Below are positions 2,824 to 55,772 of a stretch of DNA of 64,000 nucleotides, piece after piece. Location of the stretch: NCBI GenBank assembly GCA_016706865.1, contig JADJIS010000003.1:18030-82029 (forward strand). Reading direction: 5' to 3'. How positions within the stretch are numbered: position 1 is the stretch's first letter; each line of letters starts with the position of its first letter. Source of the DNA: Bacteroidota bacterium (lineage in GTDB: Bacteria > Bacteroidota > Bacteroidia > Chitinophagales > BACL12). The notes beneath the pieces are model-generated. The model worked only from the letters and a program-made list of their open reading frames with translations. It was not told the DNA's origin and did not search any database. The position numbers and the translations under genes were made by a program.

Positions 2824-3153
2824 AATTTAATAGTGTTTATTTGGCTGAGGCAAAAATAAAACGCATTTACAAATAAATTCCGGGTATTTTGTGTGGAATT
2901 ATTTGTACAGTTTATTTGGAGCAGTCAGCATAACGATTTATAATTAACAATTTTCAATGGCGGTTAAGGTAATCAAAAAATTATTAATAAAAATGGAAAT
3001 TTTATAATAAATTATACGGTATAAATCATGATCCGGCTATTTTGCAGAGTTAACTAATCGGAAACTTTATTAAAAAAAATGATATTTTATTTTATCGGAA
3101 TCTAATGTAGGAAGGTCGTTGCGTAACTTACACAAATACGCTATAAACTGCAA

Positions 3154-3319
3154 TTAATTAATTTTTGTCATGACAGTCTCTCGCACCATATCAGAATAAT
3201 TTGAAGATACCCATGTGTACATTTTGGCCATCAATTTTTATAATTTCAATTTTTAAAATATCTGTCGGTTTACCGTTAATGGGTGTATCAGCTTCTAATA
3301 TTTTTCTGTCATGTAAGTC
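3154..3319 (-). pseudogene. truncated, frameshifted copy of the 3' third of the 4972..5361 gene
   Basis: DNA aligns with 4972-5140 at roughly 85% identity by eye. It reads DLHDRKILEADTPINGKPTDILKIEIIKIDGQNV versus ELHDRKVLEGETPINGKPTDVLTIEIIKIDGQNV in the parent. A 1-nt deletion then shifts the frame to an early stop, although the parental ...MTKIN-stop DNA is still present. No 5' two-thirds and no start codon. Confidence 0.65.
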
Positions 3320-3388
3320 TTTTTGCAAATTTTTCATTAAAACCTCATTTTTCTGCATTTTTTGCATGCCAAATTGTTGTGTTTCCGC
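3320..3388. repeat. about 65-bp dispersed repeat, copy 1 (TTTTGCAAATTTTTCATTAAAACCTCATTTTTCTGCATTTTTTGCATGCCAAATTGTTG)
   Basis: About 90% identical by eye to 6898-6966. It forms the junction where homology of the pseudogene fragment to its parent ends. Confidence 0.7.
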
Positions 3389-3406
3389 TAAAATAGTTCT
3401 ATTCTG

Positions 3407-4884: not shown

Positions 4885-4971
4885 GGTAGGTTTGTTTTAT
4901 ATTGCTATTACAATTTAATATGATCTTAGAAAGTCGTCACCCAGCTTGCACAAGTGCCTTTTAAACCGTCA

Positions 4972-5361
4972 TTAATTAATTTTAGTCATAACGGTTTCAC
5001 GCACCATATCAGAATAATTTGAAGATAATCTGATGTATACATTTTGGCCATCAATTTTTATAATTTCAATTGTTAAAACATCTGTCGGTTTACCGTTAAT
5101 GGGCGTTTCCCCTTCTAACACTTTTCTGTCATGTAACTCAAAAGTACAATCGTCGATCCATATAACCTTATATGATCTTTTAACCTTCAGATACTCATTT
5201 GTCTCAATTTGAAGTGTGTCTGTTCGTTCAATTATTGACACAGCCGGTGAATTATCATGTTTCAATTCAAATTTACCTGTATGCATTTCTGTACATTTTA
5301 ACGTTTGCGCTTTTCCGGCCTGAAAGGAAAAGATGATTAGGATTATGAAAAGTTTGTTCAT
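4972..5361 (-). CDS. small secreted protein, function unknown (parent of the 3154-3319 fragment)
   Basis: 129-aa ORF with signal peptide MNKLFIILIIFSFQAGKAQ. Confidence 0.55.
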   Translation of the reverse strand: MNKLFIILIIFSFQAGKAQTLKCTEMHTGKFELKHDNSPAVSIIERTDTLQIETNEYLKVKRSYKVIWIDDCTFELHDRKVLEGETPINGKPTDVLTIEIIKIDGQNVYIRLSSNYSDMVRETVMTKIN

Positions 5362-5569
5362 GTTTAAAATAGTTTAGGTTAATGACTCAGAACGTTCCGG
5401 GCTTTGCGAAGTGGCGGTATTTGAAGCGCAATGATTCATGATTACTAAAATTATCAAATGGAAATAAAAGTTTCAGGTTTACGATTCACGCAGTCATTTT
5501 GCAAAGCTTTTGTTATAGGATGTGCGGCGGGTAAAGATTTCAATAATTGGAAATTCAAAACCATTTAAT

Positions 5570-6469
5570 TTAATTAATAAATATTTTTTTCGTTACAAAT
5601 GTCTGGCGTCCCTTATAAATTTCTACAAAATAATATCCTTTTGGTTTAATGCTCTTATAAATAATACTATTCTTGCCTGACAAAATTCCTGAAGATATTT
5701 TTGCTCCTGATAAATTTAATATTTTATACGAATAATTTTCAGAAATTTCCTGAAATTGAATGAAGACATCGCTGTTAAATGAATAAATATTGACATTGAA
5801 GAGATTAATTTCCTCTAGGTTAACTGTTGACGTGTCTCCAATAGTGTCTCCTGCCAAAATACCGGTATTGCACTTTATTTCATATGCATAATCTTTAATT
5901 ACGAGTGTTCTGCCATTGTCCTTTATATCACATCTAATCCAACCATAATGCAAACAATCCGAGGTGTCTATAAAACGAACACCTAAAAAATGATCCAAAA
6001 CTTCAGGGTACCAGATGCCGCCTTTTGGAAAATAATCGCCATCAGCTTGAATATATCGATATGCCATTACCTGATAACCTTCATTATAAAATAAAAGGTT
6101 ATTATTCAATAAACTACCTTCAGCTAGTGCATAAGGCAAATATATCCATGAACCTCCATAAGATGGGCTTATGATATGAATTTGTCCGGCAATTGAATTA
6201 TTAGGGGAAAGAGGACCAACATTTATTACTTCGAAAAAAGAAACATAATTTGAAGAATAAGTTGAAAATGACCCAGTTCTATTAATGAAGGCAAAATCAT
6301 TTGTCCCACTAATGTCCATATCAATTCCAGCGGATTCATTATCACTATCTAACACAATATCCGGATCCATATCTGTATAAACAGCCTGTCCCCTGGCATT
6401 TTGGTGTAATGCCAGGAAACAAGCTGATAGTGCTGAGTATTGAATTAAATTAAATTTAAATGCTTTCAT
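5570..6469 (-). CDS. T9SS C-terminal-target (Por secretion tail) domain protein
   Basis: 299 aa with a signal peptide. The C-terminal ~75 aa (YKILNLSGAKISSGILSGKNSIIYKSIKPKGYYFVEIYKGRQTFVTKKIFIN) fit the T9SS type A sorting-domain pattern. Confidence 0.7.
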   Translation of the reverse strand: MKAFKFNLIQYSALSACFLALHQNARGQAVYTDMDPDIVLDSDNESAGIDMDISGTNDFAFINRTGSFSTYSSNYVSFFEVINVGPLSPNNSIAGQIHIISPSYGGSWIYLPYALAEGSLLNNNLLFYNEGYQVMAYRYIQADGDYFPKGGIWYPEVLDHFLGVRFIDTSDCLHYGWIRCDIKDNGRTLVIKDYAYEIKCNTGILAGDTIGDTSTVNLEEINLFNVNIYSFNSDVFIQFQEISENYSYKILNLSGAKISSGILSGKNSIIYKSIKPKGYYFVEIYKGRQTFVTKKIFIN

Positions 6470-6598
6470 TCATTGTTTTACAAATTGTTTAACAATTGTA
6501 TTTCGGTCATCAAATTTAATCAAAAATGAAATATTTGTCAATATTAAAATAGAAAGTAAAAGAGTCTGCAAGTGCAATGCAGTAAAAATGATTTTCAT
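6470..6598 (-). CDS. possible 42-aa hydrophobic peptide directly abutting the T9SS gene start
   Basis: Own translation: MKIIFTALHLQTLLLSILILTNISFLIKFDDRNTIVKQFVKQ. Its TGA (6472-6470) is immediately followed by the ATG of 5570..6469. There is no other support. Confidence 0.2.
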   Translation of the reverse strand: MKIIFTALHLQTLLLSILILTNISFLIKFDDRNTIVKQFVKQ

Positions 6599-6897
6599 AG
6601 TAATTGAATTAAATGTGTCTGTAAAGTAAGCGAAAAATAAGTATCAAATCGAATCAATTAGGAACTGTCAAAGTCAAAGGTTTTGTTGTCCTGAAGAGAT
6701 GATGAATATTGCAAAAGCATATCCTATAACAATTAATATACGAAACTACAAAATTTCCACCACCCCTTAAATCCCAACATATTCAACCTTCAATCCGCTT
6801 TAACCGCTTAACACATATTCGTAAAGCCAATAAAAATTATTTCCGTATTCTAAATACTGAATAAAATATTATTAAGAACAATGCTCTCTCCCTAATC

Positions 6898-6966
6898 TTT
6901 TTACAAATTTTTCATTAAAACCTCGTTTTTCTGCATTTTTTGTATGCCAAATTATTGGGTTCCCAG
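6898..6966. repeat. about 65-bp dispersed repeat, copy 2
   Basis: TTTTACAAATTTTTCATTAAAACCTCGTTTTTCTGCATTTTTTGTATGCCAAATTATTG matches 3320-3388 with a handful of substitutions. Confidence 0.7.
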
Positions 6967-7004
6967 AAAAATTGGGGTAAATAAACATTTTGTTGGTAGA
7001 AAAC

Positions 7005-7100
7005 GTCCGCGTGAAGGATTGTAGCGGAAACCCCACAGCCGAGGCACGAGGCGAGGAGTTGCAGCGGAAAGCCTGACCCGCAGGGGCACGCCATGAGGAG
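7005..7100. repeat. GC-rich REP-like island (GTAGCGGAAA / TTGCAGCGGAAAGCC words)
   Basis: A locally GC-rich block in AT-rich spacer. It contains GATTGTAGCGGAAACCCC (7017-7034), identical to 44197-44214. A second GCAGCGGAAAGCC word (7061-7073) is related to 44299-44311. Confidence 0.6.
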
Positions 7101-7185
7101 TTGGCAAGGGCAGTTGGCAGTAGCAGTCACAGTCGCAGTCTCAGTTGGCAGTGGCAGTTGGCAGTTTGTAACATTGGAGTATTAT
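7101..7185 (+). repeat. tandem 6/7-mer array (NNNNCAG; GGCAGT words) ending in GGCAGTTTGTAACATTG
   Basis: Reads gggcag ttggcag tagcag tcacag tcgcag tctcag ttggcag tggcag ttggcag tttgtaacattg. The same terminal word closes each unit of the 8751-9145 array. Confidence 0.8.
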
Positions 7186-7218
7186 AGATCCAAAGGAAAA
7201 TTTGGGAAACCGGAAAAA

Positions 7219-7243
7219 GGAGAGAGGAGAAAGGAGAAAGGAG
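7219..7243 (+). repeat. purine-only heptamer array GGAGARA x3.5
   Basis: ggagaga ggagaaa ggagaaa ggag. Confidence 0.7.
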
Positions 7244-7432
7244 TTTAAATTTCATTCTGAAATTTTGCTAAATCATACCTTTTTTTATCCCTTTAAATCC
7301 GCCCTATCAGCGTCATCCGCGTTCCCCCTTTTTTTCCATCATTTGTTTTCCGATTCCCCTGTCCCCCCAACGTTGAAAACTAAATTCTAAAATTCGCCCA
7401 ATCTTCTTTTAATTCGCACCTTAATTCCTATT

Positions 7433-8701
7433 ATGAATGTAGATGTATTATTAGGGCTGCAGTGGGGTGATGAGGGGAAGGGCAAGGTGGTGGACTATCT
7501 TGCGGAACAATATGATGTGGTGGCGCGCTTTCAGGGCGGACCGAATGCCGGACATACCCTTATTTTGAACAACGGTGAGAAATTCGTTTTGCACACTATT
7601 CCCAGCGGTATCTTTTTGGAAAATTGTATCAACCTGATAGGCGCAGGGGTGGTAATCGACCCTATAACCTTCCGGATGGAGATAAAAAAACTGGAGGCAG
7701 CGGGTGTTTCGGTGGCTAACAGGCTCCTGATAAGCCGGAAGGCGCATTTGATACTTCCTACCCACAAAATGCTCGACGCAGCCAGCGAGGCTTCTAAAGG
7801 CCTGGAGAAAATTGGTTCCACATTGAAGGGAATTGGTCCGGCATACATGGATAAAACCGGTAGAAACGGGCTTAGGGTTGGCGATATTGAGAGTCCGAAT
7901 TTTTTGGATAAATACAATAAACTGAAGGAAAAACATTTTCAGTTGTTGAAAAATTATGATGGTGTATCTATTGAAGTTCCGAACGAAACGGAGTGGATGG
8001 ATGCGATAAAACATTTGCAGGACATTCCTTTTGTTGATGGTGAATATTTTTTGCAGGATCAAATTGTTGCGGGAAAAAGAATTCTTGCGGAAGGTGCGCA
8101 AGGTTCGATGTTGGATGTGGATCATGGCACTTATCCTTTTGTTACATCGAGCAATACCATTACCGCCGGAGTATGTACAGGTTTAGGGGTGGCTCCGCAA
8201 AAAATTAAGGAAGTTATTGGTATATCAAAAGCATATTGCACTCGCGTTGGATCAGGACCATTTCCTACCGAATTATTTGATGAAACGGGAGAAGAATTAC
8301 GCAAATTAGGAAATGAATTCGGTGCAACCACAGGGCGACCAAGACGTTGTGGTTGGATAGATATACCGGCGTTGAAATATGCAATAATTATTAATGGTGT
8401 TACACAAATTGCAATTACGAAAATTGATGTGTTAAATACTTTTTCAGAAATTAAAGCATGTGTTGCCTATAAAATCAATGGCGAGATAACGGATAAATTA
8501 CCATACGGAATTGTGGACGAAGAAATTGAACCTGTGTATGAAACGTTTAAAGGGTGGAATTGTGATCTTGATAATTGTAAAACAAAAGATTCGCTTCCAC
8601 TCGAGCTAAAAAATTATATTCAGTTTTTAGAATGGGAATTGAAGGTGAAGGTGTCGATGTTGTCGGCGGGGCCGGAGAGGGAGAAGTTAATTATATTGTG
8701 A
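7433..8701 (+). CDS. purA: adenylosuccinate synthase
   Basis: 422 aa. N-terminal LGLQWGDEGKGKVVDYL P-loop plus GGPNAGHT and the GTTGRPRRCGW motif. Confidence 0.97.
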   Translation: MNVDVLLGLQWGDEGKGKVVDYLAEQYDVVARFQGGPNAGHTLILNNGEKFVLHTIPSGIFLENCINLIGAGVVIDPITFRMEIKKLEAAGVSVANRLLISRKAHLILPTHKMLDAASEASKGLEKIGSTLKGIGPAYMDKTGRNGLRVGDIESPNFLDKYNKLKEKHFQLLKNYDGVSIEVPNETEWMDAIKHLQDIPFVDGEYFLQDQIVAGKRILAEGAQGSMLDVDHGTYPFVTSSNTITAGVCTGLGVAPQKIKEVIGISKAYCTRVGSGPFPTELFDETGEELRKLGNEFGATTGRPRRCGWIDIPALKYAIIINGVTQIAITKIDVLNTFSEIKACVAYKINGEITDKLPYGIVDEEIEPVYETFKGWNCDLDNCKTKDSLPLELKNYIQFLEWELKVKVSMLSAGPEREKLIIL

Positions 8702-8750
8702 GGATGGAAATTTAGGAAGGGGTCGAGCATATAGTCGGATTGGAAAAAGG

Positions 8751-9145
8751 GAGTCACAGTGGGCAGTGGCAGTAGGCAGTGGCAGTGGGCAGTTTGTAAA
8801 AGTGATAATTGTTCCTTCGAGTAGAACTAATTGGAAGATCGAGAGTTAACAGTTGGCAGTGGTAGTTAAGAGTGGGCAGTCAACAGTGGGCAGTGGGCAG
8901 TTTGTAACATTGATGAATGTTCCTTCGAGTAGAACTAATTGGAAGATCGAGAGTTAACAGTTGGCAGAGGCAGTTAAGAGTGGGCAGTCAACAGTGGGCA
9001 GTGGGCAGTTTGTATCATTGATGAATGTTCCTTCGAGTAGAACTAATTGGAAGATCGAGAGTTAACAGTTAGCAGTGGTAGTTAAGAGTTGGCAGTCAAC
9101 AGTGGGCAGTGGGCAGTTTGTAACATTGATGAATGTTCCTCCGAA
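8751..9145 (+). repeat. 108-bp higher-order tandem repeat, about 3.6 copies
   Basis: Full units lie at 8811-8918, 8919-9026 and 9027-9134. A partial leading unit spans 8751-8810 and there is a short trailing piece. Each unit is a unique ~45 nt (GTTCCTTCGAGTAGAACTAATTGGAAGATCGAGAGTTAAC) followed by about nine AGTNNNN heptamers (agttggc agtggt agttaag agtgggc agtcaac agtgggc agtgggc agtttgt). Confidence 0.9.
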
Positions 9146-9287
9146 TTTTAATTTTTCAATCAATTAAAGTTTTTTTATACTTTTAACTTTATAATGTTTC
9201 TCAGGCATGATAATGAAATTCATATGAGAAATTTAAGTTTTATATTACTGTAATTACTTCGCGTAACTTTGCGTCCTTAGCGCCTTA

Positions 9288-10610
9288 GTGGCAAAAAAAA
9301 ATGATATGCGGATCGAAAATGTTTTTAGTGTAAAAGATAATCAATCATTTCGCAATCAACTGCTAAATTATTCTTCAGGGTTTGAACATTTTGTTTTTTT
9401 GGATTCTTGTGATAATGCGGTGTATGGGGAGACGGAATTTGATTATTTATTTGCGGCGGGAAATTATGCAAGTTTAATTGCAAATGCCGGAAATGCTTTT
9501 GCGGAATTACAGCAATTTATAGATACCTATAAGGAGTGGTGTTTCGGTTATCTGGGGTATGATCTGAAAAATGAGAGTGAAAAATTATCGTCTAAAAACC
9601 AAGACAGGATCGCGTTTCCGGATATGTTGTTTTTTATTCCGGAGATTATTGTAAGGGTAAAAAATGGGGAAGTTAAAGTTTCAATTCTTTTAGAAAGTTC
9701 CATAACTTCCACTGGTGAAGAAATTTTTAATAATATTTGTGAGGAAAAAAGTGATATAAATTTTGAACGCAATAATATTAATTTATTACCTCGGATACCG
9801 AAAAAAGATTATCTCGAAAAAATAAATAAGATCCGCAAAAATATTATCGACGGTGATGTATATGAATTAACTTTTTGTCAGGAATTTTATAGTGAAAATG
9901 TTAACATAGAACCACTTATTGTTTTTCAGGAATTATGCAAAAAATCCAAAGCTCCCTTTTCCGTTTTATTTCGATGGGAAAATAAATATTTGATCTCCGC
10001 GAGTCCGGAGCGGTTTTTACAAAAGAAGGGCGATACAATTGTTTCTCAACCTATTAAAGGAACATCAAAACGCAGCTCCGATCCTTTGGTTGATGCACAA
10101 TTAAAAACTGAACTCTACAACAGCGAAAAAGACCGCGCAGAAAATGTGATGATAGTGGATCTTGTGCGCAACGACCTTGCACGCATTGGAAAAACCGGAA
10201 CAATTAAGGTTGATGAATTATTCGGAATTTATTCTTTTGAACAAGTGCATCAAATGGTTTCTACCATTTCGGCAAATGTAAAAGAGGATATTTTAATTTC
10301 AGATATTTTAAAAAATACTTTCCCAATGGGCTCCATGACCGGCGCACCAAAAGTGATGGCTATGGAACTAATCGAAAATTACGAAGAATCAAAACGCGGA
10401 TTATTTTCCGGCGCCTTCGGATATATTTCGCCTGAAGGTGATTTTGATTTTAATGTGGTAATTAGAAGTATAATATATGATGCATTGCAACAATATATTT
10501 CCGTTCAGGTAGGAGGGGCAATCGTTTTTGATTCGGTAGCAGAGAAAGAGTATGAGGAGTGCGTGTTGAAGTTGAGTGGGATTGTAGGGGTTTTTGGGGG
10601 TGGGACATAG
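9288..10610 (+). CDS. pabB: aminodeoxychorismate synthase component I (anthranilate/PABA synthase component I family)
   Basis: 440 aa. The chorismate-binding C-terminal domain carries PERFL, IKGT, SEKDRAENVMIVDLVRND and FPMGSMTGAPK motifs. The start is GTG 9288, with ATG 9306 as an alternative. The TAG stop lies inside the downstream heptamer array. Confidence 0.85.
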   Translation: MAKKNDMRIENVFSVKDNQSFRNQLLNYSSGFEHFVFLDSCDNAVYGETEFDYLFAAGNYASLIANAGNAFAELQQFIDTYKEWCFGYLGYDLKNESEKLSSKNQDRIAFPDMLFFIPEIIVRVKNGEVKVSILLESSITSTGEEIFNNICEEKSDINFERNNINLLPRIPKKDYLEKINKIRKNIIDGDVYELTFCQEFYSENVNIEPLIVFQELCKKSKAPFSVLFRWENKYLISASPERFLQKKGDTIVSQPIKGTSKRSSDPLVDAQLKTELYNSEKDRAENVMIVDLVRNDLARIGKTGTIKVDELFGIYSFEQVHQMVSTISANVKEDILISDILKNTFPMGSMTGAPKVMAMELIENYEESKRGLFSGAFGYISPEGDFDFNVVIRSIIYDALQQYISVQVGGAIVFDSVAEKEYEECVLKLSGIVGVFGGGT

Positions 10611-10662
10611 GACATAGGACATACGACATAGGACATACGACATAGGACAGACATAGGACAGT
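10603..10662 (+). repeat. heptamer array (GGACATA/CGACATA) about 8.5 units
   Basis: ggacata ggacata ggacata cgacata ggacata cgacata ggacaga cata ggacagt. The pabB stop (10608-10610) is part of the array. Confidence 0.9.
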
Positions 10663-10810
10663 GGAAATGTGATATAGGACTTGAATGGATTTAAAGTGAT
10701 AAATTTTATTTCTAACTAAAAGTTAGCGTTTAAATGTAAAATTTTCAATTAATTAGGATACACCTTTTTTATCCTTTCCCCAACCTTCCTTCCTTTTTCA
10801 ATCTTAGAAC

Positions 10811-10897
10811 CTTCCTCTTCGACTCTTCGAATCTTCTCCCTTCGAATCTTCAAGGACTTCCCCTTCGATTCTTCGAATCTTCTCCCTTCGAATCTTA
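10811..10897. repeat. 7/8-mer array (CTTCGAAT / CTTCTCC), containing a 26-nt unit twice
   Basis: cttcgaatcttctcccttcgaatctt occurs twice, at about 10827-10852 and 10871-10896. The array ends exactly on the stop codon (10895-10897) of the minus-strand CHAP gene. Confidence 0.85.
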
Positions 10898-11521
10898 CTC
10901 TATCCTCATCCATCCAAGCACCCTTCTATTCATCACCTTCCACCTATCATTTATCAGAACTAATTTTAATTCTTCTCTGCTTGGGGCATCGGGGCCGGCA
11001 TTTTGTTGAATGATCTCGATGGAGTTTTCTGATACTTTGGAAATAATTGCAATATGTCCGTATTTATTTCCGAGATGACCATCAAAAACTAAAATATCAT
11101 CTACGGAAGGTTTTTTTAAACTGGCATTGGAATATTGAACGAGATCGCGTTTTTCATTATAGGATGCATCGGGTAAATTGCGATCGAAAATATCTTTTGC
11201 ATTACCTCCCGGCACCGGCATTACATGATTAAAATGTTCGTAATAATATCTTTTTACAAATTCCACACATTGCCATTGTAATCCGATATTATATCCATCT
11301 TTTGAAATATTTTTTGCAGTTACATTGGAAGTTTCTCCGTTATAATAAACCACTACATGATTTAAAGAATCAATGGGAGTTCCTACCTTGAATTTTAAAT
11401 TGTCGGGAAAAACTAAATTTAATGCCTGCAGAATAAATAATGCTATTGCCAGACATAACACAACTATAATTGTATATACAATATTTAAATTTCTTGTTGC
11501 GGGATGTTTACTTGTGATCAT
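10895..11521 (-). CDS. CHAP domain-containing protein (amidase/peptidase) with N-terminal TM anchor
   Basis: 208 aa. Catalytic-type Cys context LQWQCVEFVKRYY and His context NKYGHIAIISKV are typical of CHAP domains. Confidence 0.75.
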   Translation of the reverse strand: MITSKHPATRNLNIVYTIIVVLCLAIALFILQALNLVFPDNLKFKVGTPIDSLNHVVVYYNGETSNVTAKNISKDGYNIGLQWQCVEFVKRYYYEHFNHVMPVPGGNAKDIFDRNLPDASYNEKRDLVQYSNASLKKPSVDDILVFDGHLGNKYGHIAIISKVSENSIEIIQQNAGPDAPSREELKLVLINDRWKVMNRRVLGWMRIE

Positions 11522-11633
11522 GCTTCAATAATCTAACGAATCTACCTAATTTATTGGTATAGATGAAATTGCAATCCATATTTAATAAAAAAGGCCACCT
11601 TAATTGGCGGCCTTTTACAAATATCATTTTTTG

Positions 11634-12425
11634 TCAGAATTTAAAAGTTATTCCCACTGTTCCAAGGATCATATCGGTTTTTGATTCTTTTGGGAAAGCG
11701 GCAATGGAAATATCCTCTTCATCAACTTCTTCCTGACTGGTAGGAATGGTGTTAAATACCACCTCCCATTCATCGATATCATCTTCCACAAAATATGAAG
11801 CATTTCCACCCAGCGAATAGGCAACCCTAAGATCGATCAACATATTTTCATTCAGTTCTATCATTAAACCGGCAGCACCTCCATAACTAAAGGTCCAGTC
11901 GGAATTTTGTTTGGAACTGGTGATCAGCGGATTATCTTCTTCACTCAGATAATATTCTTCCGATTCGTCGTAAATAGAAGTTTTAGTGGAAAAATTGTTA
12001 AATCCAAGAATACCATCCACATAAGGTTTAAAAAATTTAGTTGGCGATTGCACTCTTAAATTCAAATGACCGGTAGAAATAGTATTAGAGGTTTCGATAC
12101 GCATGGGGAATAACAATTGATCGATAACTATTCCATCAACAACTATATCGGCGGTAAGTGTTTTGTCCTCGGTTTTAAAACCATTATTCATAAATGCAAG
12201 GTCAAAACCCACTAATACCGGAATTTTTACCGATGGTTGGAAAAACAAGTTAAATCCACCGCCAACGGCAACTTCGTCGTTGTAAGTTTTAAAATCGTTC
12301 ATTGGAATACCCAGATCGAAGTTCAATCCAAAAAATACTGCCGATTTTTTAACCGGGTGAGTAGTTTGTGCCATGAGGGAAAAGGCTGTGCATACAAAAA
12401 CAACAGAGAGTGTAAGTTTTTTCAT
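11634..12425 (-). CDS. outer-membrane beta-barrel (porin-family) protein
   Basis: 263 aa with a signal peptide (MKKLTLSVVFVCTAFSLMAQ), alternating beta-strand pattern and a C-terminal ...GTVGITFKF aromatic terminus. Confidence 0.7.
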   Translation of the reverse strand: MKKLTLSVVFVCTAFSLMAQTTHPVKKSAVFFGLNFDLGIPMNDFKTYNDEVAVGGGFNLFFQPSVKIPVLVGFDLAFMNNGFKTEDKTLTADIVVDGIVIDQLLFPMRIETSNTISTGHLNLRVQSPTKFFKPYVDGILGFNNFSTKTSIYDESEEYYLSEEDNPLITSSKQNSDWTFSYGGAAGLMIELNENMLIDLRVAYSLGGNASYFVEDDIDEWEVVFNTIPTSQEEVDEEDISIAAFPKESKTDMILGTVGITFKF

Positions 12426-12455
12426 AATTGTAAAATTAAATAATAAATGAATGTG

Positions 12456-13550
12456 TTATAACCACTTTTTTTTCTTGTAAATGATGAACTGAATGATCGT
12501 AATGATGATCATAACAGCCCAAACACCCGCATAACCATATCGCCATGTGAGTTCCGGCAAATTTTCAAAGTTCATGCCATAAACACCTACAAGAAAGGTT
12601 AAAGGGATAAAAATGGCGGAAATCAAGGTGAGCACTTTTATGATCTCATTCATATGGCTGTTCATATTGGCCATATTTGTTTGCACAAGACCGGCCAGGT
12701 ATTCGCGGTCGGTATCGATCTGATTCACTACCTGGTTAACATGATCCTGCAAATCGCGCAGGAAATGTTTAGAATCAGGTTCAATTAAAATAATGTCCTC
12801 CTTCATCAATTTAAATATCACTTCCCGAAGAGGCGCTATACTTCGTCGTAAATAAATAAAATCTTTGCCAATATTATGAATGTCGGTTAAATGGTTTTTA
12901 TTTTTCTGAACAAAAATATTATTTTCAATTTTATCCAGTTCCGCAGAATAATGATCGAGCACAATAAAGTAGCTGTCAACAATAGCATCAATTAATGCGT
13001 ACATAAGATAATCGGATCCTTTTTTGCGCATTCTTCCTTTTCCTGTTCGTATTCTGTCGCGCAAAACTTCAAAATAATCACCTTCATCCTCCTGAAAAGT
13101 TAAAACAAATCCATTACCAAGAATCAAACTGATCTGATCGCGCTGTAAATGATCATTTTCAAAATAAAATTCATTCAGTGTAACATAAATAATATCATCT
13201 TCTGTGTATTCATCAACCTTAGGCAGTTGAAATACATTTAGAATATCTTCCTGAATAAGATTGTGCAATTTGTAAAATGCACCGATCTCACCGATTAATT
13301 TTTCATTATGTAAACCATTTACATTTATCCAGGAAATATAATCTTTAGGTTGTTTTACTAAATAATTTCCACCTTCAGCAAATTGTTCTTCTGTATATGC
13401 AGTTTCATTGTAATTAATTATACTTACGCCAATTTCAGTATGCCGTTTATTACCGGTGTAAACAGGAGTGCCGGGAGGTAAACCTGATTTACGTCGGTGT
13501 GTGGTTTTTTTTAAATGACCGGTTACCGGTTTTTTGTTGGATTCATTCAT
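12456..13550 (-). CDS. corA: magnesium/cobalt transporter CorA
   Basis: 364 aa. The GMNF (GMN) signature in VGVYGMNFENLPE is followed by the last TM helix. Overlaps the upstream gene by 8 nt. Confidence 0.9.
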   Translation of the reverse strand: MNESNKKPVTGHLKKTTHRRKSGLPPGTPVYTGNKRHTEIGVSIINYNETAYTEEQFAEGGNYLVKQPKDYISWINVNGLHNEKLIGEIGAFYKLHNLIQEDILNVFQLPKVDEYTEDDIIYVTLNEFYFENDHLQRDQISLILGNGFVLTFQEDEGDYFEVLRDRIRTGKGRMRKKGSDYLMYALIDAIVDSYFIVLDHYSAELDKIENNIFVQKNKNHLTDIHNIGKDFIYLRRSIAPLREVIFKLMKEDIILIEPDSKHFLRDLQDHVNQVVNQIDTDREYLAGLVQTNMANMNSHMNEIIKVLTLISAIFIPLTFLVGVYGMNFENLPELTWRYGYAGVWAVMIIITIIQFIIYKKKKWL

Positions 13551-25175: not shown

Positions 25176-25931
25176 ATGGATACTAAAATCACGGAAATAG
25201 AAATACTGATCGACAAATTGAACTTGCTTTTTGCTTCAGTTAAAAGTGACGGACAACTGGATAAGTTTGAAGTCGAGTTGTTGAAAAAATATGTTCGTCA
25301 ATTGCAGGATAAACTCGATTCGATAAGTGAAGGAACACAACAGGAAAAAAAGCCGGAAATAAATGTTGTTCCTATAATTCCTATTATTCCTGCAGAAAAG
25401 GTAGTGCCAAAAGTTTTACCTGAGGAGATCGTTCCACCGATAATATTTAAAGAAGAGAAACCGGAAAAGGAAATTGTTGCTCCGGTTGAGAAAATAATAA
25501 CGGCTGAAAAAGAGATTCCAAAGGTTATGGTAAATCCATATGCAGAGAAGATAAAAGAGGAAATTAAACCTGTGGTGGAGGAACAAAAAAAACCAATTCA
25601 TAAATTAAAGGAAAATGCAGAAGAGGAACTGAACAAGGCTCTCAATGTGAAATTGGCAAGTAATAAAAAGACCTTAGCGGAAAGAATTCATTCACACAAG
25701 GCAAAGGAAATTACCAGTGTTATCGACCTGAATGATAAATTATTTTTTATTAAAGAATTATTTAAAGGTGATGTAAACGGATATTCCGCTGTACTTAAAA
25801 CAATAAACAGTATGAATTCGTTTGAAGAAGTGAAAAAATATATTCAAAATGAATTATCCTCCCAATACAATTTTTCAGAAGAAGAATCGGTGGAAAGATT
25901 TTTGGAAGTGGTGAAGTTGAAGTTTGAGTAA
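25176..25931 (+). CDS. hypothetical protein with central Pro/Glu/Lys/Val-rich low-complexity linker
   Basis: 251 aa: a coiled N-terminus, a PEKEIVAPVEKIITAEKEIPKV-type linker and a structured C-terminal ~90 aa. Confidence 0.6.
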   Translation: MDTKITEIEILIDKLNLLFASVKSDGQLDKFEVELLKKYVRQLQDKLDSISEGTQQEKKPEINVVPIIPIIPAEKVVPKVLPEEIVPPIIFKEEKPEKEIVAPVEKIITAEKEIPKVMVNPYAEKIKEEIKPVVEEQKKPIHKLKENAEEELNKALNVKLASNKKTLAERIHSHKAKEITSVIDLNDKLFFIKELFKGDVNGYSAVLKTINSMNSFEEVKKYIQNELSSQYNFSEEESVERFLEVVKLKFE

Positions 25932-25937
25932 TGAATT

Positions 25938-26017
25938 GGGACACGGGACATAGGACACGAGACACAGGACATGGGACATGGGACACGGGACATGGGACAC
26001 GGGACACGAGACACGGG
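25938..26017 (+). repeat. heptamer array (GGGACAY) about 11 units; contains a G3N4 x5 quadruplex-type motif
   Basis: gggacac gggacat aggacac gagacac aggacat gggacat gggacac gggacat gggacac gggacac gagacac ggga. Begins 7 nt after the stop at 25929-25931. Confidence 0.9.
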
Positions 26018-26136
26018 AAAACAAAGGGTGGGATTTAGTTAAATTTTGGAAAAAATTTCGGCTCCTATTTTATTACTTCTTATTTGGCAAGTCAAATTAG
26101 AAATTAAATCCCAAATATTACGTTAACACGGCTGTT

Positions 26137-26186
26137 TAATTATCAATTATCAATTGTCAATTGTCAATTATCAATTGTCAATTGTT
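26137..26186. repeat. heptamer array (TRTCAAT) about 6-7 units spanning the waaA stop codon
   Basis: tatcaat tatcaat tgtcaat tgtcaat tatcaat tgtcaat. The waaA stop (26164-26166, minus strand) and its last ~5 codons (QLTIDN) are encoded by the array. Confidence 0.9.
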
Positions 26187-43058: not shown

Positions 43059-43119
43059 ATGTTGCACAAGCCTAAGGCTTGCGCTATTTTTGTTGAGCTG
43101 CACGCCGAAGGCGTGCAGC
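43038..43119 (+). repeat. REP cluster, left: three GC-rich hairpins
   Basis: GAAGCGGACGCTTC (43040-43053), GCACAAGCC-TA-AGGCTTGCGC (43064-43084) and the perfect GCTGCACGCC-GAA-GGCGTGCAGC (43097-43119). Confidence 0.85.
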
Positions 43120-43310: not shown

Positions 43311-43361
43311 ATTTAATTTGAGGAGAAAAAATGGAACATTTTTTCTCCGTTCAAATTAAAT
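43311..43361. other. long AT-rich hairpin (23 bp in two helices with a 2-nt bulge, GAA loop) abutting the inverted REP upstream of the RAYT gene
   Basis: ATTTAATTTGAGGAGAAAAAATG-GAA-CATTTTTTCTCCGTTCAAATTAAAT, paired base by base by hand. Confidence 0.75.
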
Positions 43362-43408
43362 AGCGCAAGCCTTAGGCTTGTGCAAAATTCAGTAAAGCAT
43401 CCGCTTTT
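43358..43408 (-). repeat. REP, inverted copy
   Basis: GCGCAAGCCTTAGGCTTGTGC (43363-43383) is the exact reverse complement of 43064-43084. The flanking AAGCATCCGCTT is a diverged copy of GAAGCGGACGCTTC. Confidence 0.8.
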
Positions 43409-43455: not shown

Positions 43456-44022
43456 ATGAGCAATAAATATAAATTTCGTAGTTACGAAGATCTTTATTTT
43501 ACTACACAAACTGTTGTTAATTGGGCAGATGTTTTTACAAGAAATTTGTATAAAAATATTGTCATCGACAGCTTGAAATTTTGTCAGGAAAAAAAGGGAT
43601 TGGAAATTTATGCATGGGTGATGATGACAAATCATCTTCATTTTATTTTGGGCACACATCAAAACCCTTTGAATGAAATTTTACGCGATTTTAAAAGTTA
43701 TACTTCAAGAAGAATTAAAGATGCGCTTTATAATAATAATTATGAAAGCAGAAGATATTGGTTAACACATATGTTTGAATATGAAGGGCATAAAAACAGT
43801 AATAATGAAGAATGGCAATTTTGGCAACAGGATAATCATCCAATTCGTTTATTTAATGCAGATATAACGAGACAAAAATTAAATTATATTCATAATAATC
43901 CGGTGAAGGCCGGGTTTGTGGAGGAACCGGCGCATTGGGTTTATAGTAGTGCAGGGGATTATTTGGCGGATAGGAAGGGGTTGCTCGACATTTTATTATT
44001 AGAAGGTTTATATTATGTTTGA
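43456..44022 (+). CDS. REP-associated tyrosine transposase (RAYT; IS200/IS605-like Y1 HUH transposase)
   Basis: 188 aa. HUH motif in AWVMMTNHLHFIL. C-terminal catalytic-Tyr helix context RQKLNYIHNNPVKAG. Flanked by REP hairpins. Confidence 0.85.
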   Translation: MSNKYKFRSYEDLYFTTQTVVNWADVFTRNLYKNIVIDSLKFCQEKKGLEIYAWVMMTNHLHFILGTHQNPLNEILRDFKSYTSRRIKDALYNNNYESRRYWLTHMFEYEGHKNSNNEEWQFWQQDNHPIRLFNADITRQKLNYIHNNPVKAGFVEEPAHWVYSSAGDYLADRKGLLDILLLEGLYYV

Positions 44023-44078
44023 GGGAAGCGGACGCTTCAAAGAACGTTGCACAAGCCTAAGGCTTGCGCTATTTTTAT
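44023..44078 (+). repeat. REP, right direct copy
   Basis: Starts 1 nt after the RAYT stop. Hairpins at 44025-44038 and 44049-44069 are identical to those in the left copy. Confidence 0.85.
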
Positions 44079-44149: not shown

Positions 44150-44340
44150 GGTTTCGAATAGCCGGGTATAGCAGCCGAAAGCCGCTTTCTAGCCCCGATT
44201 GTAGCGGAAACCCCTGCCGTGAATGAATTTTATTTTTTAGTTAATACATTTTGCATAGGTTGGATTTTTGGGTTTGAATTGATTAAAATAGGCAGGGTTG
44301 CAGCGAAAAGCGGGGGCGCGGCCCTGAAAAAACGCCGCGG
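44150..44340. repeat. GC-rich REP-like islands downstream of the RAYT locus
   Basis: Contains GATTGTAGCGGAAACCCC (44197-44214), identical to 7017-7034, and GGTTGCAGCGAAAAGC (44296-44311), related to 7058-7073. Confidence 0.6.
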
Positions 44341-46122: not shown

Positions 46123-46182
46123 AATGTACCAATGTACCAATTAACAGCCAAATTAATGTACCAATTAACAGCCGCATTAACG
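46123..46182 (+). repeat. 8-mer/24-mer array (TGTACCAA; ATGTACCAATTAACAGCC x2) starting 9 nt after the ftsY stop
   Basis: aatgtaccaatgtaccaattaacagccaaattaatgtaccaattaacagccgcattaacg. Confidence 0.85.
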
Positions 46183-46286
46183 TAATAAAAATAAATTAAC
46201 ACTAATATCATCAATAACTTTTTAATTTAGTAAAATAATTCCACCATACCGATCACATAAGCAGCCGCAGGCAGCGGTTATATTGG

Positions 46287-52930: not shown

Positions 52931-53014
52931 ATCAGGAGGTAATGGTCAGGAGTCATTAGTCAGGAGTCATTGGTCAATAGTCAATAGTCAATGGTCAATA
53001 GTCAGGAGTAAATG
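52931..53014 (+). repeat. heptamer array GTCANNR, 12 units in perfect phase
   Basis: atcagga ggtaatg gtcagga gtcatta gtcagga gtcattg gtcaata gtcaata gtcaatg gtcaata gtcagga gtaaatg. Begins 17 nt after the kinase stop. Confidence 0.9.
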
Positions 53015-53035
53015 CATCCGGATAGGAGGATCAAT

Positions 53036-53088
53036 CTCATTACTCCCGTCCGACCGGGTCGTCCGGGCGGGCATTACTCATTACTCAT
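53036..53088 (+). repeat. 53-nt direct repeat, copy A (GC hairpin + CATTACT heptamers), upstream of tRNA-Leu
   Basis: CTCATTACTCCCGTCCGACCGGGTCGTCCGGGCGGGCATTACTCATTACTCAT. Hairpin CCCGTCCG...CGGGCGGG at 53045-53071. Confidence 0.9.
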
Positions 53089-53184: not shown

Positions 53185-53266
53185 ACCGGAATGGTGGAAC
53201 TGGTAGACACGCACGTTTCAGAGGCGTGTGCCGCGAGGTATGCGGGTTCGAGTCCCGCTTCCGGTA
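53185..53266 (+). tRNA. tRNA-Leu (anticodon CAG), class II with long variable arm; CCA not encoded
   Basis: Hand-folded cloverleaf. Acceptor ACCGGAA/TTCCGGT. D-arm GTGG-AACTGGTAGA-CAC. Anticodon arm CACGT-TTCAGAG-GCGTG (U33, CAG, A37). 13-nt variable arm. T-arm GCGGG-TTCGAGT-CCCGC. Discriminator A. Confidence 0.9.
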
Positions 53267-53277
53267 CGAAATAAATG

Positions 53278-53375: not shown

Positions 53376-53492
53376 GGTGATGTGGTGTTTTCGGAGGATA
53401 TACTATCAACTTTATAGGATCTATCTCACCACTCAGCAATTTGTCAATAGTCATTAGTAAGGAGTAAAACTATTCGGCTGTCTGTAGGCAAA

Positions 53493-53545
53493 CTCATTAC
53501 TCCCGTCCGACCGGGTCGTCCGGGCGGGCATAACTCATTACTCAT
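53493..53545 (+). repeat. 53-nt direct repeat, copy B, downstream of tRNA-Leu
   Basis: 52/53 identical to 53036-53088, offset 457 bp. Weaker similarity extends about 50 nt further upstream in both copies (GTCAATAGTCA..GGAGTAAA). Confidence 0.9.
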
Positions 53546-53693: not shown

Positions 53694-55772
53694 TCACCAA
53701 CTAAGAAGCTCCTCCATCACCACTCCAACTTTTTCCGCACTCGGAAGCATGGCTTTTTCTAAGCCGGAGTTTAGTGGGACTGCGGGGAGATTTTTTGCTC
53801 CTAACATTTTTACTGGAGCATCGAGATATTTAAATAATTCGGAAGAAATTCTTCCCGCAATTGCCTGTGCAAAAGAATTCATGATAGGTTCTTCCGTAAG
53901 AACAAAACATTTATTGTGTCGTTTTACGGAAGTTTCAATTGCTTCCCAATCGTATGGTGATAATGTTCTAAGATCTAAAATTTCCACCTGACCAGGATAT
54001 TTTTTACTCGCATTTAATGCCCAATGAACACCCATTCCATAGGTGACAACAACAATACTTTCTCCGTTATTTATTTTTTCTTCTGAGGCATGTTGAAATA
54101 TGCGTGCCTTTCCTAAAGGAATAATATAATCATCGGAAGGTTGAATTGATTTTGCAGCAGCCGTTCCGGGAACCTTGCTCCAATACAAACCTTTATGTTC
54201 AAACATCACAACAGGATTCGGATCATAAAAAGCACCCTTTAATAATCCTTTCATGTCGGCGGCATTGCTGGGGTAAACAACTTTTATTCCTTTTATAGCA
54301 GTAATGGAAGATTCGATGGAACCGGAATGATAAGGTCCTCCCGATCCATATGCACCAATTGGAATGCGAATAACTGTTTGCACATTCCATTTTCCATTGG
54401 TGAGATAAAATGATTTTGATAATTCGGACACCAATTGATTTACGCCTGTCCATATATAATCGGCAAACTGAATTTCCACCACCGGTTTTGCTCCGGCGGC
54501 GCTCATACCTAATGTAGAACCCACTAAATATGCTTCCTGAATTGCAGTATTAAAAACTCTGTGATCTCCATGTTTAACAGCTAAAGTGGCAGCTTCCCTG
54601 AAAACTCCGCCCAATCTCTTTCCAACATCCTGCCCATATAACAATGCTTCCGGGTGTTTGGTCAAAATTTCATCCATGGCAAACAAGGCAGCATCCACCA
54701 TTATAACTTGCTCAGCACCAACGGGTTCGCGGGTTCCTTGTTCTTCCTGGATGGTTGACTCTGCAAACTCAAAAAGCTCCACGGTGGAGGGATCGGGGTC
54801 GGGGGAGGCAACTACTGCCGCAAAGGCATCTCTGGTCATCTTGTCGACCGTGGATTCTAATTGGAGCAATTCGTTACTGCTAAAACCCGCTGCCTGGAGT
54901 AAATTTCTCAATTTTGGCAATGGATCCCGGCTTTGATGCTCGTTCAGGTCTTCTTCCGAACGATACATTTCCATCCTCACTCCACTCGTATGATGCCCGA
55001 GTAAAGGAACTTTGGCATGAATCAAAATAGGTTTTCTGTTCACCCGAACATAACCTATAGCTTCTTTTACACAGTTCCAGCATTCGGTAAAATCACTTCC
55101 ATCCACCCTTACTCTTCTCAAACCTTTAAATCCGGCGGCATATTCGTAAGCATCCATGGTTCGGGCTTCTTCTTTGGATACAGAAATTCCCCAGTCATTA
55201 TCCTGAACCAAATAAATAATAGGTAAACCTTTTAAAACAGCAAATTGCAATGCCTCTGCAACTTCACCTTCCGTCATGGCGCCATCGCCTATAGAGCAAA
55301 CAACCAATGGATTTTCTTTGGAGGTATCCAACAAATTTTGTTGTTCAAGATATTGTATCCCTTGTGCCACGCCGGTTGTAGGAATTGCCTGCATGCCGGT
55401 TGCCGAGGAAGAATGTATCATTTGCGGATAATCTTTTCCTTTATAACTCGGATGACAATAATAATTGCGACCACCACTGAAAGGATCATCTCTCTTTGCC
55501 ATTAACTGTAACAGAATTTCTTCCGGTTTCCAGCCCATACCCATTAACATGGAGTCGTCACGATAGTATAAACTCGCCCAATCGCATTTTTTTAACTGAA
55601 GTCCCATTGCGATCTGAATGGCCTCATGTCCCCTGGAATTGGCATGCACAAAGATGCAGGTTTGCCTGTTCTCATTGAATATCTCACTCATCACCTTACT
55701 CGTAAACATGATGCGGTAAGCTTCCAGGAGTATTTTTTTATCAACCAATTCGAGAGTTTCCTTTTGATTCAT
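53694..55772 (-). CDS. 2-oxoacid (branched-chain alpha-keto acid type) dehydrogenase E1 component, fused alpha/beta subunits
   Basis: 692 aa. The N-terminal half has a TPP-binding alpha-type sequence (GDGAMTEGEVAEALQFA). The C-terminal half is a transketolase-like pyrimidine-binding beta-type sequence (FNTAIQEAYLVG, EIQFADYIW). Confidence 0.9.
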   Translation of the reverse strand: MNQKETLELVDKKILLEAYRIMFTSKVMSEIFNENRQTCIFVHANSRGHEAIQIAMGLQLKKCDWASLYYRDDSMLMGMGWKPEEILLQLMAKRDDPFSGGRNYYCHPSYKGKDYPQMIHSSSATGMQAIPTTGVAQGIQYLEQQNLLDTSKENPLVVCSIGDGAMTEGEVAEALQFAVLKGLPIIYLVQDNDWGISVSKEEARTMDAYEYAAGFKGLRRVRVDGSDFTECWNCVKEAIGYVRVNRKPILIHAKVPLLGHHTSGVRMEMYRSEEDLNEHQSRDPLPKLRNLLQAAGFSSNELLQLESTVDKMTRDAFAAVVASPDPDPSTVELFEFAESTIQEEQGTREPVGAEQVIMVDAALFAMDEILTKHPEALLYGQDVGKRLGGVFREAATLAVKHGDHRVFNTAIQEAYLVGSTLGMSAAGAKPVVEIQFADYIWTGVNQLVSELSKSFYLTNGKWNVQTVIRIPIGAYGSGGPYHSGSIESSITAIKGIKVVYPSNAADMKGLLKGAFYDPNPVVMFEHKGLYWSKVPGTAAAKSIQPSDDYIIPLGKARIFQHASEEKINNGESIVVVTYGMGVHWALNASKKYPGQVEILDLRTLSPYDWEAIETSVKRHNKCFVLTEEPIMNSFAQAIAGRISSELFKYLDAPVKMLGAKNLPAVPLNSGLEKAMLPSAEKVGVVMEELLSW

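Follow-up and report, generated by a model that had tools for sequence, protein, structure and literature searches.

A 108-nt repeat array between purA and pabB of an uncultured Chitinophagales-related bacterium and its probable origin from heptamer arrays

Introduction

What kind of repeat fills the spacer between purA and pabB in an uncultured Chitinophagales-related bacterium of activated sludge, and how could it have come about? The spacer lies on a 64,000-nt stretch of contig JADJIS010000003.1 (assembly GCA_016706865.1), which is referred to here as the window. It separates purA, a housekeeping gene encoding adenylosuccinate synthase, from a pabB-like gene for a chorismate-binding enzyme, and contains three complete units of 108 nt in which a run of heptamers is joined to non-heptameric sequence. 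An earlier note on this DNA had described the repeat and had proposed that purA, bracketed by two copies of the same word, was a substrate for recombination or copy-number change. The reading favoured here, with a probability of about two in three, is that the region is a recently formed, non-coding, composite intergenic minisatellite, which resembles mycobacterial interspersed repetitive units (MIRUs) and arose by misalignment of heptamer arrays in a heptamer-rich lineage.

For cyanobacteria it has been an open question since 1990 why heptamer arrays with conserved companion motifs gather next to genes. According to passages in PMC4679880 (citing Mrazek 2007) and PMC4692102, heptanucleotide repeats are the most abundant class of long simple sequence repeats (SSRs) in most surveyed genomes, and polymerase slippage was proposed as their origin. 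The heptamer arrays of Xanthomonas and Nostoc lie nearer to the upstream open reading frame (ORF) (PMC4692102), and "larger assemblages of heptamer repeats" were described in intergenic regions of Bacteroidetes (PMC4679880). The array between purA and pabB belongs to a known kind of repeat and there is no sign of a new mechanism or molecular machine; it is an entry point to the biology of heptamer arrays.

Results

Architecture of the array

A period of 108 nt was detected by Tandem Repeats Finder (TRF) at 8777-9144, with 3.4 copies, 94% matches, 0 indels and a score of 659, and a repeat search of the window returned three copies of 148 nt, in register, 108 nt apart and 95% identical. The higher-order repeat that had been claimed after purA could therefore be confirmed, with three full units at 8811-9134. 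The units starting at 8811, 8919 and 9027 are identical at 103-106 of 108 positions (95-98%), and the substitutions between them are present as they had been quoted. A non-heptameric core of 42 nt occurs exactly three times in the window, compared to none expected in shuffles.

Each unit had been described as a segment of ~45 nt followed by about nine AGTNNNN heptamers. Indeed, a block of ~63 nt with nine AGTNNNN units showed a self-match of 0.50-0.51 at lag-7 and lag-14, whereas the 45-nt segment reached 0.29 at lag-7, near its value at most other lags (0.16-0.34), and has no 7-nt periodicity. This supports the proposal that the re-duplication took in a heptamer array as well as the non-heptameric sequence beside it. 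The word GGCAGTTTGTAACATTG was found exactly at 7160, 8896 and 9112, with one mismatch at 9004 and with two mismatches at 8788, which amounts to five matches versus 0.32 expected. Inside the array, TRF identified period-7 repeats at 8757-8793, 8979-9009 and 9100-9117, and at least five further period-7 arrays are present elsewhere in the window. The array thus combines head-to-tail units in the range of 10-100+ nt with high identity, as in bacterial minisatellites, and tandem 7-nt units in several intergenic arrays, as in the long heptanucleotide SSRs of the short tandemly repeated repetitive (STRR) type.

All parts of the region are read on the plus strand. The purA gene (7433-8701, 422 aa; identified from the ORF list, PF00709 and homologues) is followed by a purine-rich leader, which extends from its stop codon to the first array (8702-8756) and has no counterpart in relatives, where only 4-21 nt are found. 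The leading heptamer array (8757-8810, 54 nt) consists of ~5.6 copies of GGCAGTG (TRF 8757-8793, period 7, 5.6 copies) and ends in a degenerate anchor, GGCAGTTTGTAAAAGTGATAATT, which carries the two mismatches at 8788; it represents a partial unit, A0. Unit 1 (8811-8918, haplotype a) was delimited by TRF, the repeat search and the unit alignment, and from the unit alignment follow unit 2 (8919-9026, haplotype b, with A50, C53 and T97) and unit 3 (9027-9134, haplotype d, with A45 and T64), which is replaced by haplotype c in other strains. The array ends with a 10-nt stub of a fourth unit, GTTCCTCCGA (9135-9144; TRF and sequence).

The remaining spacer is an AT-rich unique tail (9145-9305), in which a regex scan identified TAACTTTG at 9264-9271. 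This is the sole TAnnTTTG box in the spacer, a motif that matches the Bacteroidota-type -7 promoter consensus, and it is located 35 nt 5' of the pabB ATG. It is therefore a candidate for a new pabB promoter. The pabB-like gene (9306-10610, 434 aa; Pfam PF00425, 277 bits) most likely starts at the ATG at 9306 and not at the alternative GTG at 9288, as judged from the alignment with relatives (MRI...), which gives a spacer of 604 nt.

The array in independent assemblies

Identical PurA was found on contigs of several wastewater metagenome projects and in two metagenome-assembled genomes (MAGs), and a search for identical PabB added further contigs. For this species, the whole array is contained in at least six independent assemblies, and in most of them it has three SNP-tagged units. 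Three units, each tagged by different single nucleotide polymorphisms (SNPs), are present in L001-L003 and in L108, a 970-kb MAG contig of GCA_016708595.1 that is 99.5% identical to the window over 6.3 kb. L004 also has three units, two of which are identical. L008 and L110 have two units each, and L007 contains no fewer than 3.5 identical units up to the end of the contig. The order of unit haplotypes is a-b-d in the window and a-b-c, a-a-d, a-d or a-c' in other strains.

A collapse to one unit, which the earlier note had named as the sign of an assembly artefact, was never seen: the independent assemblies gave two to three SNP-tagged units. Because these assemblies reproduce the SNP-tagged units, it is concluded that the array is real. 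The copy-number change that had been suggested is in line with the forms of two and of at least 3.5 units beside the common three-unit form, but the assemblies that deviate from three units were built from short reads, and adjacent units of identical sequence can be merged during assembly. Several short-read contigs break within the array. The reshuffling of haplotypes has the pattern that would be expected from unit loss and exchange; the variation in unit number is suggestive.

The purA-pabB junction in relatives

When purA was searched in a collection of 185,579 species genomes, the best match was 64% identical; in the protein database the closest PurA sequences reach 86-89% identity, among them several with the label Chitinophagales. 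The gap between purA and pabB is 4-21 nt in eight genomes or contigs of relatives whose PurA is 73-89% identical, with individual values of 9, 5, 5, 21, 15, 21 and 4 nt (one purA was found on two contigs, L127 and L128). A ninth relative has a gap of 229 nt without these arrays, compared to the 604 nt of the window species. Since the junction is tight in the relatives, the leader, array and tail were inserted or have grown in the window species. The ancestral junction was presumably co-transcribed, and the array is, as judged from this comparison, a recent species-specific gain.

The spacer is non-coding and unstructured

In 8702-9305 every one of the six frames is interrupted by at least seven stops, and the longest stretch without a stop is 48 aa, in agreement with the claim that the region has no ORF of 60 aa or more. 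A coding repeat, as might be suspected from a period of 108 nt (36 codons), was ruled out because all six frames are closed. In 8702-9305 no Rfam family was found at the gathering threshold and none at E<=1, and an excess of RNA fold stability compared to shuffled sequences was absent on both strands (z +0.91 and +2.65). The consensus fold of 11 anchors contained zero pairs. No G-quadruplex motif (at least four G3 tracts with loops of <=7 nt, or up to 12 nt) was identified on either strand of 8702-9305.

Inverted repeats flanking the array were not found, and the repeat search returned just two inverted pairs at chance level. All copies are direct, without the palindromic hairpins and inverted pairs that are typical of repetitive extragenic palindromes (REPs), of bacterial interspersed mosaic elements (BIMEs) and of REPINs. 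At the array junctions no target-site duplication was visible compared to the empty site of the relatives. Scans for sigma-70 promoters and terminators gave no more matches than shuffled sequences did, without a terminator after purA, and a regex scan detected no TAnnTTTG box within the 108-nt units. Overall, the array is non-coding and unstructured, and it lacks the defining features of MITEs (miniature inverted-repeat transposable elements), REP/BIME repeats, G-quadruplex repeats and structured RNAs.

The F1 module at other loci and in a sister species

The closing word of the array is the anchor of a module, named F1, that is present at other loci. It consists of a (GGCAGTN)n run, the anchor TTTGTAACATTGGAG and a following ~30 nt that include TTCCTTCGAGnnnAACT. 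A second higher-order array of the same species was identified upstream of tyrS, between this gene and a divergent gene of 224 aa (L131:9231-9903, GCA_016708595.1, and also L132). Its units of 102 nt are repeated 6.6 times with 95% identity in two megabase-contig MAGs (L131, L132), and 3.5 copies are present in a short-read assembly (L134). The tyrS and purA units share the anchor, the next ~30 nt with TTCCTTCGAGnnnAACT and the terminal AACAGTGGGCAGTGGG, and differ in the middle. One unit family is thus arrayed at two intergenic loci within the ~95 kb examined of one genome, as is characteristic of MIRUs. One MAG annotation calls an ORF of 223 aa through the tyrS-locus array.

The 45-mer of the purA units had been called unique. 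This could not be maintained, because its first ~30 nt are homologous to the units of the tyrS locus. With nhmmer, a 53-nt "unique" segment had no other copy in 1.05 Mb excluding the tyrS locus, a negative that reflects sampling. The 30-nt unit core had no exact match in the 185,579 species genomes, among which the source species is apparently not represented, so this result is uninformative on dispersal. The 45-mer did not match any recognisable end of an insertion sequence (IS) or MITE, which had been considered as an alternative identity.

When metagenomes were scanned for GGCAGTNGGCAGTTTGTAANANTG, the nine contigs obtained came from microbial-mat samples and show at least five unrelated gene contexts. 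On each mat contig a GGCAGTN array ends in TTTGTAACATTGGAG and is followed by related sequence. The TyrS of the mat organism is 96% identical to that of the window species (located in GCA_016708595.1 and GCA_018058405.1), and it is therefore concluded that the mat organism is a sister species. An assignment of the mat loci to a different genus, based on 78% TyrS identity to other relatives, was overturned by this value, and the argument from a cross-genus conservation of the anchor is weakened accordingly. A gene of 426 aa beside the F1 module in L094, considered as purA, was identified instead as tyrS.

Significant matches to the F1 profile were obtained with nhmmer solely in the window species and the sister species. 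No significant match was found in ~640 kb from 80 other purA loci, with one marginal match (E 0.047, L080), nor in the nearest relatives L100-L106, with one marginal match (E 0.25, L103). Ten matches to the 17-mer on viral contigs, in three contexts, are all inside coding sequence and without arrays, and were regarded as chance. The orientation of F1 to adjacent genes varies by locus, as modules occur after genes, between convergent genes and 5' of divergent genes.

The F1 copy upstream of purA

As had been noted, the closing word of the array also ends an array 5' of purA, with an exact copy at 7160. This upstream array (7095-7159, plus strand; TRF 7095-7166, GGCAGT positions 7109-7160) is the (GGCAGTN)n heptamer/hexamer run of a single F1 module. 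It is followed by the F1 anchor in its canonical form, GGCAGTTTGTAACATTGGAG + TATTATAGATCCAAAGGAAAAT (7160-7201, plus strand; exact 17-mer, nhmmer E 2.8e-14), which matches the F1 modules of L091 and L095, in the sister species, with 83-86% identity over 59 nt. The upstream F1 copy shows no difference in any of the nine other strain assemblies compared. Directly 5' of the upstream array, a Flavo-1-like RNA motif was identified below the Rfam threshold (7000-7082, plus strand; RF01705, 32.6 bits versus a gathering cutoff of 42, E 3.6e-4).

The longest exact match between the two sides of purA is 17 nt and the best 42-nt stretch is 86% identical. The position of purA is unchanged in every assembly recovered, whether it carries purA or extends into the array from the pabB side (L107-L116). 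The proposal that the bracketing word makes purA a recombination cassette is therefore not upheld: the bracket is real yet a weak recombination substrate, and the most fitting interpretation is that adjacent spacers each hold an F1 site.

The surroundings of the upstream copy differ from those in L100-L106, with a break of synteny at 6470-7432. The order in these relatives is relA/spoT-fur-STAS-purA. The window has instead a divergent gene of 299 aa with a Por_Secre_tail-like product and a spacer of 963 nt, which is a mosaic of repeat modules. The last ~40-80 nt before the purA ATG are the only conserved part of this spacer.

Heptamer arrays in the window and in the sister species

The density of period-7 arrays was ~78 per Mb in the window versus ~6 per Mb in 80 control loci, as determined in scans with slightly different thresholds. 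Arrays are located at or just after the stop codons of pabB, of the genes ending at 25931, 46114 and 52914, of the CHAP gene and at the minus-strand stops at 26164 and 53694, and other genes of the window have ordinary hairpin-plus-T terminators. Several classes have their own anchors, such as (GGGACAC)n-GGGAAAACAAAGGGTGGGATTTAG and a heptamer run ending in AATTAACAGCCGnnTTAACGTAATA, the latter found after two other classes.

The spacer between pabB and the CHAP gene (10603-10896) measures 284, 334, 362, 373, 394 or 401 nt in different strain assemblies. It contains 8.7 copies of GGACATA starting inside the pabB stop codon, a 23-mer repeated 4.3 times that abuts the CHAP stop, and a module of ~100 nt. 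The strains differ by a change of one heptamer, by copy changes of the 23-mer and by the presence of the ~100-nt module once or twice. This spacer is a clearer variable number tandem repeat (VNTR) than the purA array, and its variation among strains is direct evidence of active slippage and unequal exchange in the genome.

In the sister species, higher-order repeats of 415 nt x 2, 191 x 4, 104 x 5, ~85 x 5 and 121 x 5 were observed, several of which consist of a short array and unique sequence. These intergenic repeats from the microbial-mat metagenomes are located at L091:7792-8595, L093:8713-9446, L094:9931-10438 and 8073-8371, L095:7996-8420 and L096:286-887. The window species and its sister thus fill intergenic spacers, in many cases from the stop codon or shortly behind it, with heptamer arrays and with higher-order repeats of 85-415 nt.

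Discussion

Formation of the array

Two neighbouring heptamer arrays of the F1 type with ~30-40 nt in common would misalign, through slipped-strand mispairing or through unequal crossing-over, while the DNA is replicated or sister strands are exchanged, and one array would be duplicated together with the intervening 45 nt. The resulting 108-nt homology would then permit gain, loss and homogenisation of units. Slippage and unequal exchange would thus be the mechanism, and its component pieces are observed. The array probably has no required function, and its consequence is likely limited to the 600-nt separation of purA and pabB, with pabB expressed by read-through or from the candidate promoter in the AT-rich tail.

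Several points weigh against this interpretation. The ~95 kb mentioned above is the part of the genome over which the window species was examined. Differences in copy number at the purA locus come mostly from short-read assemblies, and VNTR behaviour is therefore suggestive at this locus. The anchor of 17 nt is invariant in nine copies with an intact word, with two window copies 1-2 nt off, and 36 nt are identical between L099 and the window units. The anchor is better conserved than the adjacent intergenic DNA, which hints at selection or active spread over pure neutrality, and this good conservation is what a purely neutral account chiefly fails to explain. The array may also have a role in purA 3'-end formation or in pabB expression.

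Alternative explanations

It is doubtful, but worth stating, that F1 and its sibling modules, in which each heptamer class has its own anchor, form an undescribed class of very small elements of the Chitinophagales. Such elements would spread without a transposase-type signature, by array-seeded ectopic conversion or through an RNA or single-stranded DNA intermediate, and would nucleate polar heptamer arrays and 100-nt higher-order repeats. If so, they would be a counterpart in the Bacteroidota of the unexplained cyanobacterial system of STRRs and small dispersed repeats (SDRs). Instead, the anchor could be the site that a DNA- or RNA-binding protein specific to this lineage recognises.

Conventional mobility is a less probable option. 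The F1 units would then be tiny non-autonomous mobile elements similar to the SDRs of Nostoc or to MITEs, and the arrays would result from repeated insertions or enzyme-driven amplification. This is consistent with the near-identical anchor in dispersed copies at unrelated loci, with homologous units arrayed at two loci of one genome, with the absence of the module from the closest other relatives and with a Y1 transposase gene in the window, similar to those of IS200 and to REP-associated tyrosine transposases (RAYTs). However, the units are without terminal inverted repeats, target-site duplication and a consistent hairpin, no pair of empty and filled alleles was found, the viral-contig matches are chance matches in coding sequence, and the RAYT of the window has its own, unrelated REP hairpins. 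Moreover, the exact phasing of 108 nt is a prediction of unequal exchange.

A function of the array as a cis-element in the purA 3'UTR or the pabB 5'UTR, with the unit number tuning the expression of pabB or purA, is quite unlikely. It could for example be a platform for a single-strand binder of the S1/Csp type, or a C-rich site at which Rho is loaded onto antisense transcripts. On the sense strand G is abundant and C is scarce (124 G versus 46 C), the antisense RNA is unusually unstructured (the z of +2.65), arrays of the window tend towards G or purines when read in the direction of the gene before them, and both the conserved anchor and the lack of an intrinsic terminator after purA would fit such a role. 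Regulatory roles have also been proposed for heptamer repeats elsewhere (PMC4679880). Yet in eight of nine relatives a junction of 4-21 nt suffices, so there was no ancestral function at this site; the orientation of F1 to neighbouring genes is inconsistent across loci, and the units are without a TAnnTTTG box.

An assembly artefact, a coding repeat or a known system (CRISPR, the template/variable pair of a diversity-generating retroelement, or iterons) is hardly credible in spite of a period divisible by 3 and of the short-read contigs that break in the array, since SNP-tagged units are reproduced in independent assemblies, all frames are closed, the near-identical units lack variable spacers, the ORFs listed for 5000-12500 include neither a cas nor a reverse-transcriptase gene, and the substitutions between units are not confined to A positions.

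Comparison with known repeat systems

For the minisatellite reading, the closest functional analogue is, by comparison of features, the MIRU-type dispersed minisatellite; in composition the array would go with the heptamer SSRs found between genes in cyanobacteria, Xanthomonas and some Bacteroidetes. MIRUs, which serve in VNTR typing, are reportedly located between co-oriented genes of operons. Both systems have units of ~50-100 nt in tandem in intergenic spacers, with one unit family at several loci. MIRUs are minisatellites with copy-number variation between strains (PMC3635867). However, they have no internal heptamer microsatellite, whereas the units described here combine a heptamer array with an anchor, and they carry short ORFs that overlap the flanking genes, whereas all six frames are closed in every unit here. 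In addition, two arrayed loci have been seen here so far, and there is no sequence relationship.

The heptanucleotide SSRs (cyanobacterial STRR; GGGAATC of Xanthomonas; GGGGA(C/T)T of Nostoc; TAACTGA in Beggiatoaceae, Cyanobacteria and Bacteroidetes) show the same intergenic enrichment of period 7, with several types per genome. The units between purA and pabB contain CAACAGT, which is said to be among the classical STRR heptamers. Heptanucleotide SSRs are often near the end of the upstream ORF, and their function is unknown, with slippage proposed (PMC4692102, PMC4679880). The reported arrays are simple, whereas here the heptamers form part of a 108-nt higher-order unit that also has a conserved, non-repetitive anchor, and unlike the heptamers of the Xanthomonas and Nostoc type the array has no G-quadruplex motif.

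The SDRs of Nostoc punctiforme, for which PMC3116915 cites Elhai et al. 2008, are likewise very short, conserved, dispersed sequences that are tied to heptamer arrays and restricted to a narrow clade. They are reportedly 21-27 nt long and located inside arrays, and three families are said to share a hairpin with compensatory changes. For F1, the association with arrays and the dispersal were seen and a conserved hairpin was not seen among the 11 anchors; the F1 anchor is located at one end of the array and has no consensus structure.

BIME, REP and REPIN sequences are also small dispersed extragenic motifs, which form tandem mosaics at 3' ends of genes or between genes of operons, and a RAYT-type gene is present in the window. 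REPs are, however, palindromic and alternate in orientation, while F1 is non-palindromic with all units direct, and the RAYT of the window has its own distinct REP hairpins. BrickBuilt shares with the array its occurrence in the Bacteroidota, its strictly intergenic and dispersed location and a tandem array between a conserved "leader" and "tail". It is a MITE of Porphyromonas gingivalis with a 23-nt minisatellite, small inverted-repeat ends and demonstrated promoter activity (PMC4596501). No inverted ends were found here, and the composite unit of 108 nt differs from the simple one of 23 nt.

Relevance

The purA-pabB spacer, and more so the pabB-CHAP and tyrS spacers, are ready VNTR markers for strain typing of an abundant uncultured Chitinophagales species of activated sludge, and the repeat-filled spacers explain why short-read contigs of this organism break. 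The lineage shows microsatellites seeding higher-order repeats in a bacterium, and provides a second phylum in which it can be asked why heptamer arrays with conserved companion motifs gather next to genes.

Other repeats

Further heptamer classes of the window start at stop codons and end in GGGAAAACAAAGGGTGGGATTTAGTTAAATTTT and AATTAACAGCCGnnTTAACGTAATA (25938-26040, 26110-26185 and 46123-46190). The GGGAAAACAAAGGGTGGGATTTAGTTAAATTTT class is also present in the sister species with 80-85% identity, where in addition an AATGAGT array of 43 copies was observed.

The IS200-like Y1 transposase gene of the RAYT type (Pfam Y1_Tnp, 32.5 bits) is located at 43456-44022. A REP-like hairpin, GTTGCACAAGCCTAAGGCTTGCGC, is present on both sides of this gene, with copies at 43061-43090, 43358-43406 and 44046-44075, and is unrelated in sequence to F1. 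Just 3' of this gene, a Flavo-1 RNA (44187-44321) was identified above the threshold with 45 bits and a 72-nt insertion in its terminal loop. Flavo-1 may be part of the landscape of repeat elements.

A tRNA-Leu(CAG) at 53185-53267 is flanked by direct repeats with 84% identity (52987-53088 and 53443-53545), in each of which a GC-rich hairpin, CCCGTCCGACCGGGTCGTCCGGGCGGG, breaks up heptamer arrays. A similar arrangement of a hairpin in an array was found at ~53700-53760 and 5' of purA in the relative L103. Two dispersed repeats were also observed. The first, at 3111-3319 and 4929-5139, is 84% identical over 211 nt and overlaps a gene of 129 aa, which suggests a decayed paralogue; the second, at 3318-3394 and 6896-6972, is 88% identical over 77 nt.

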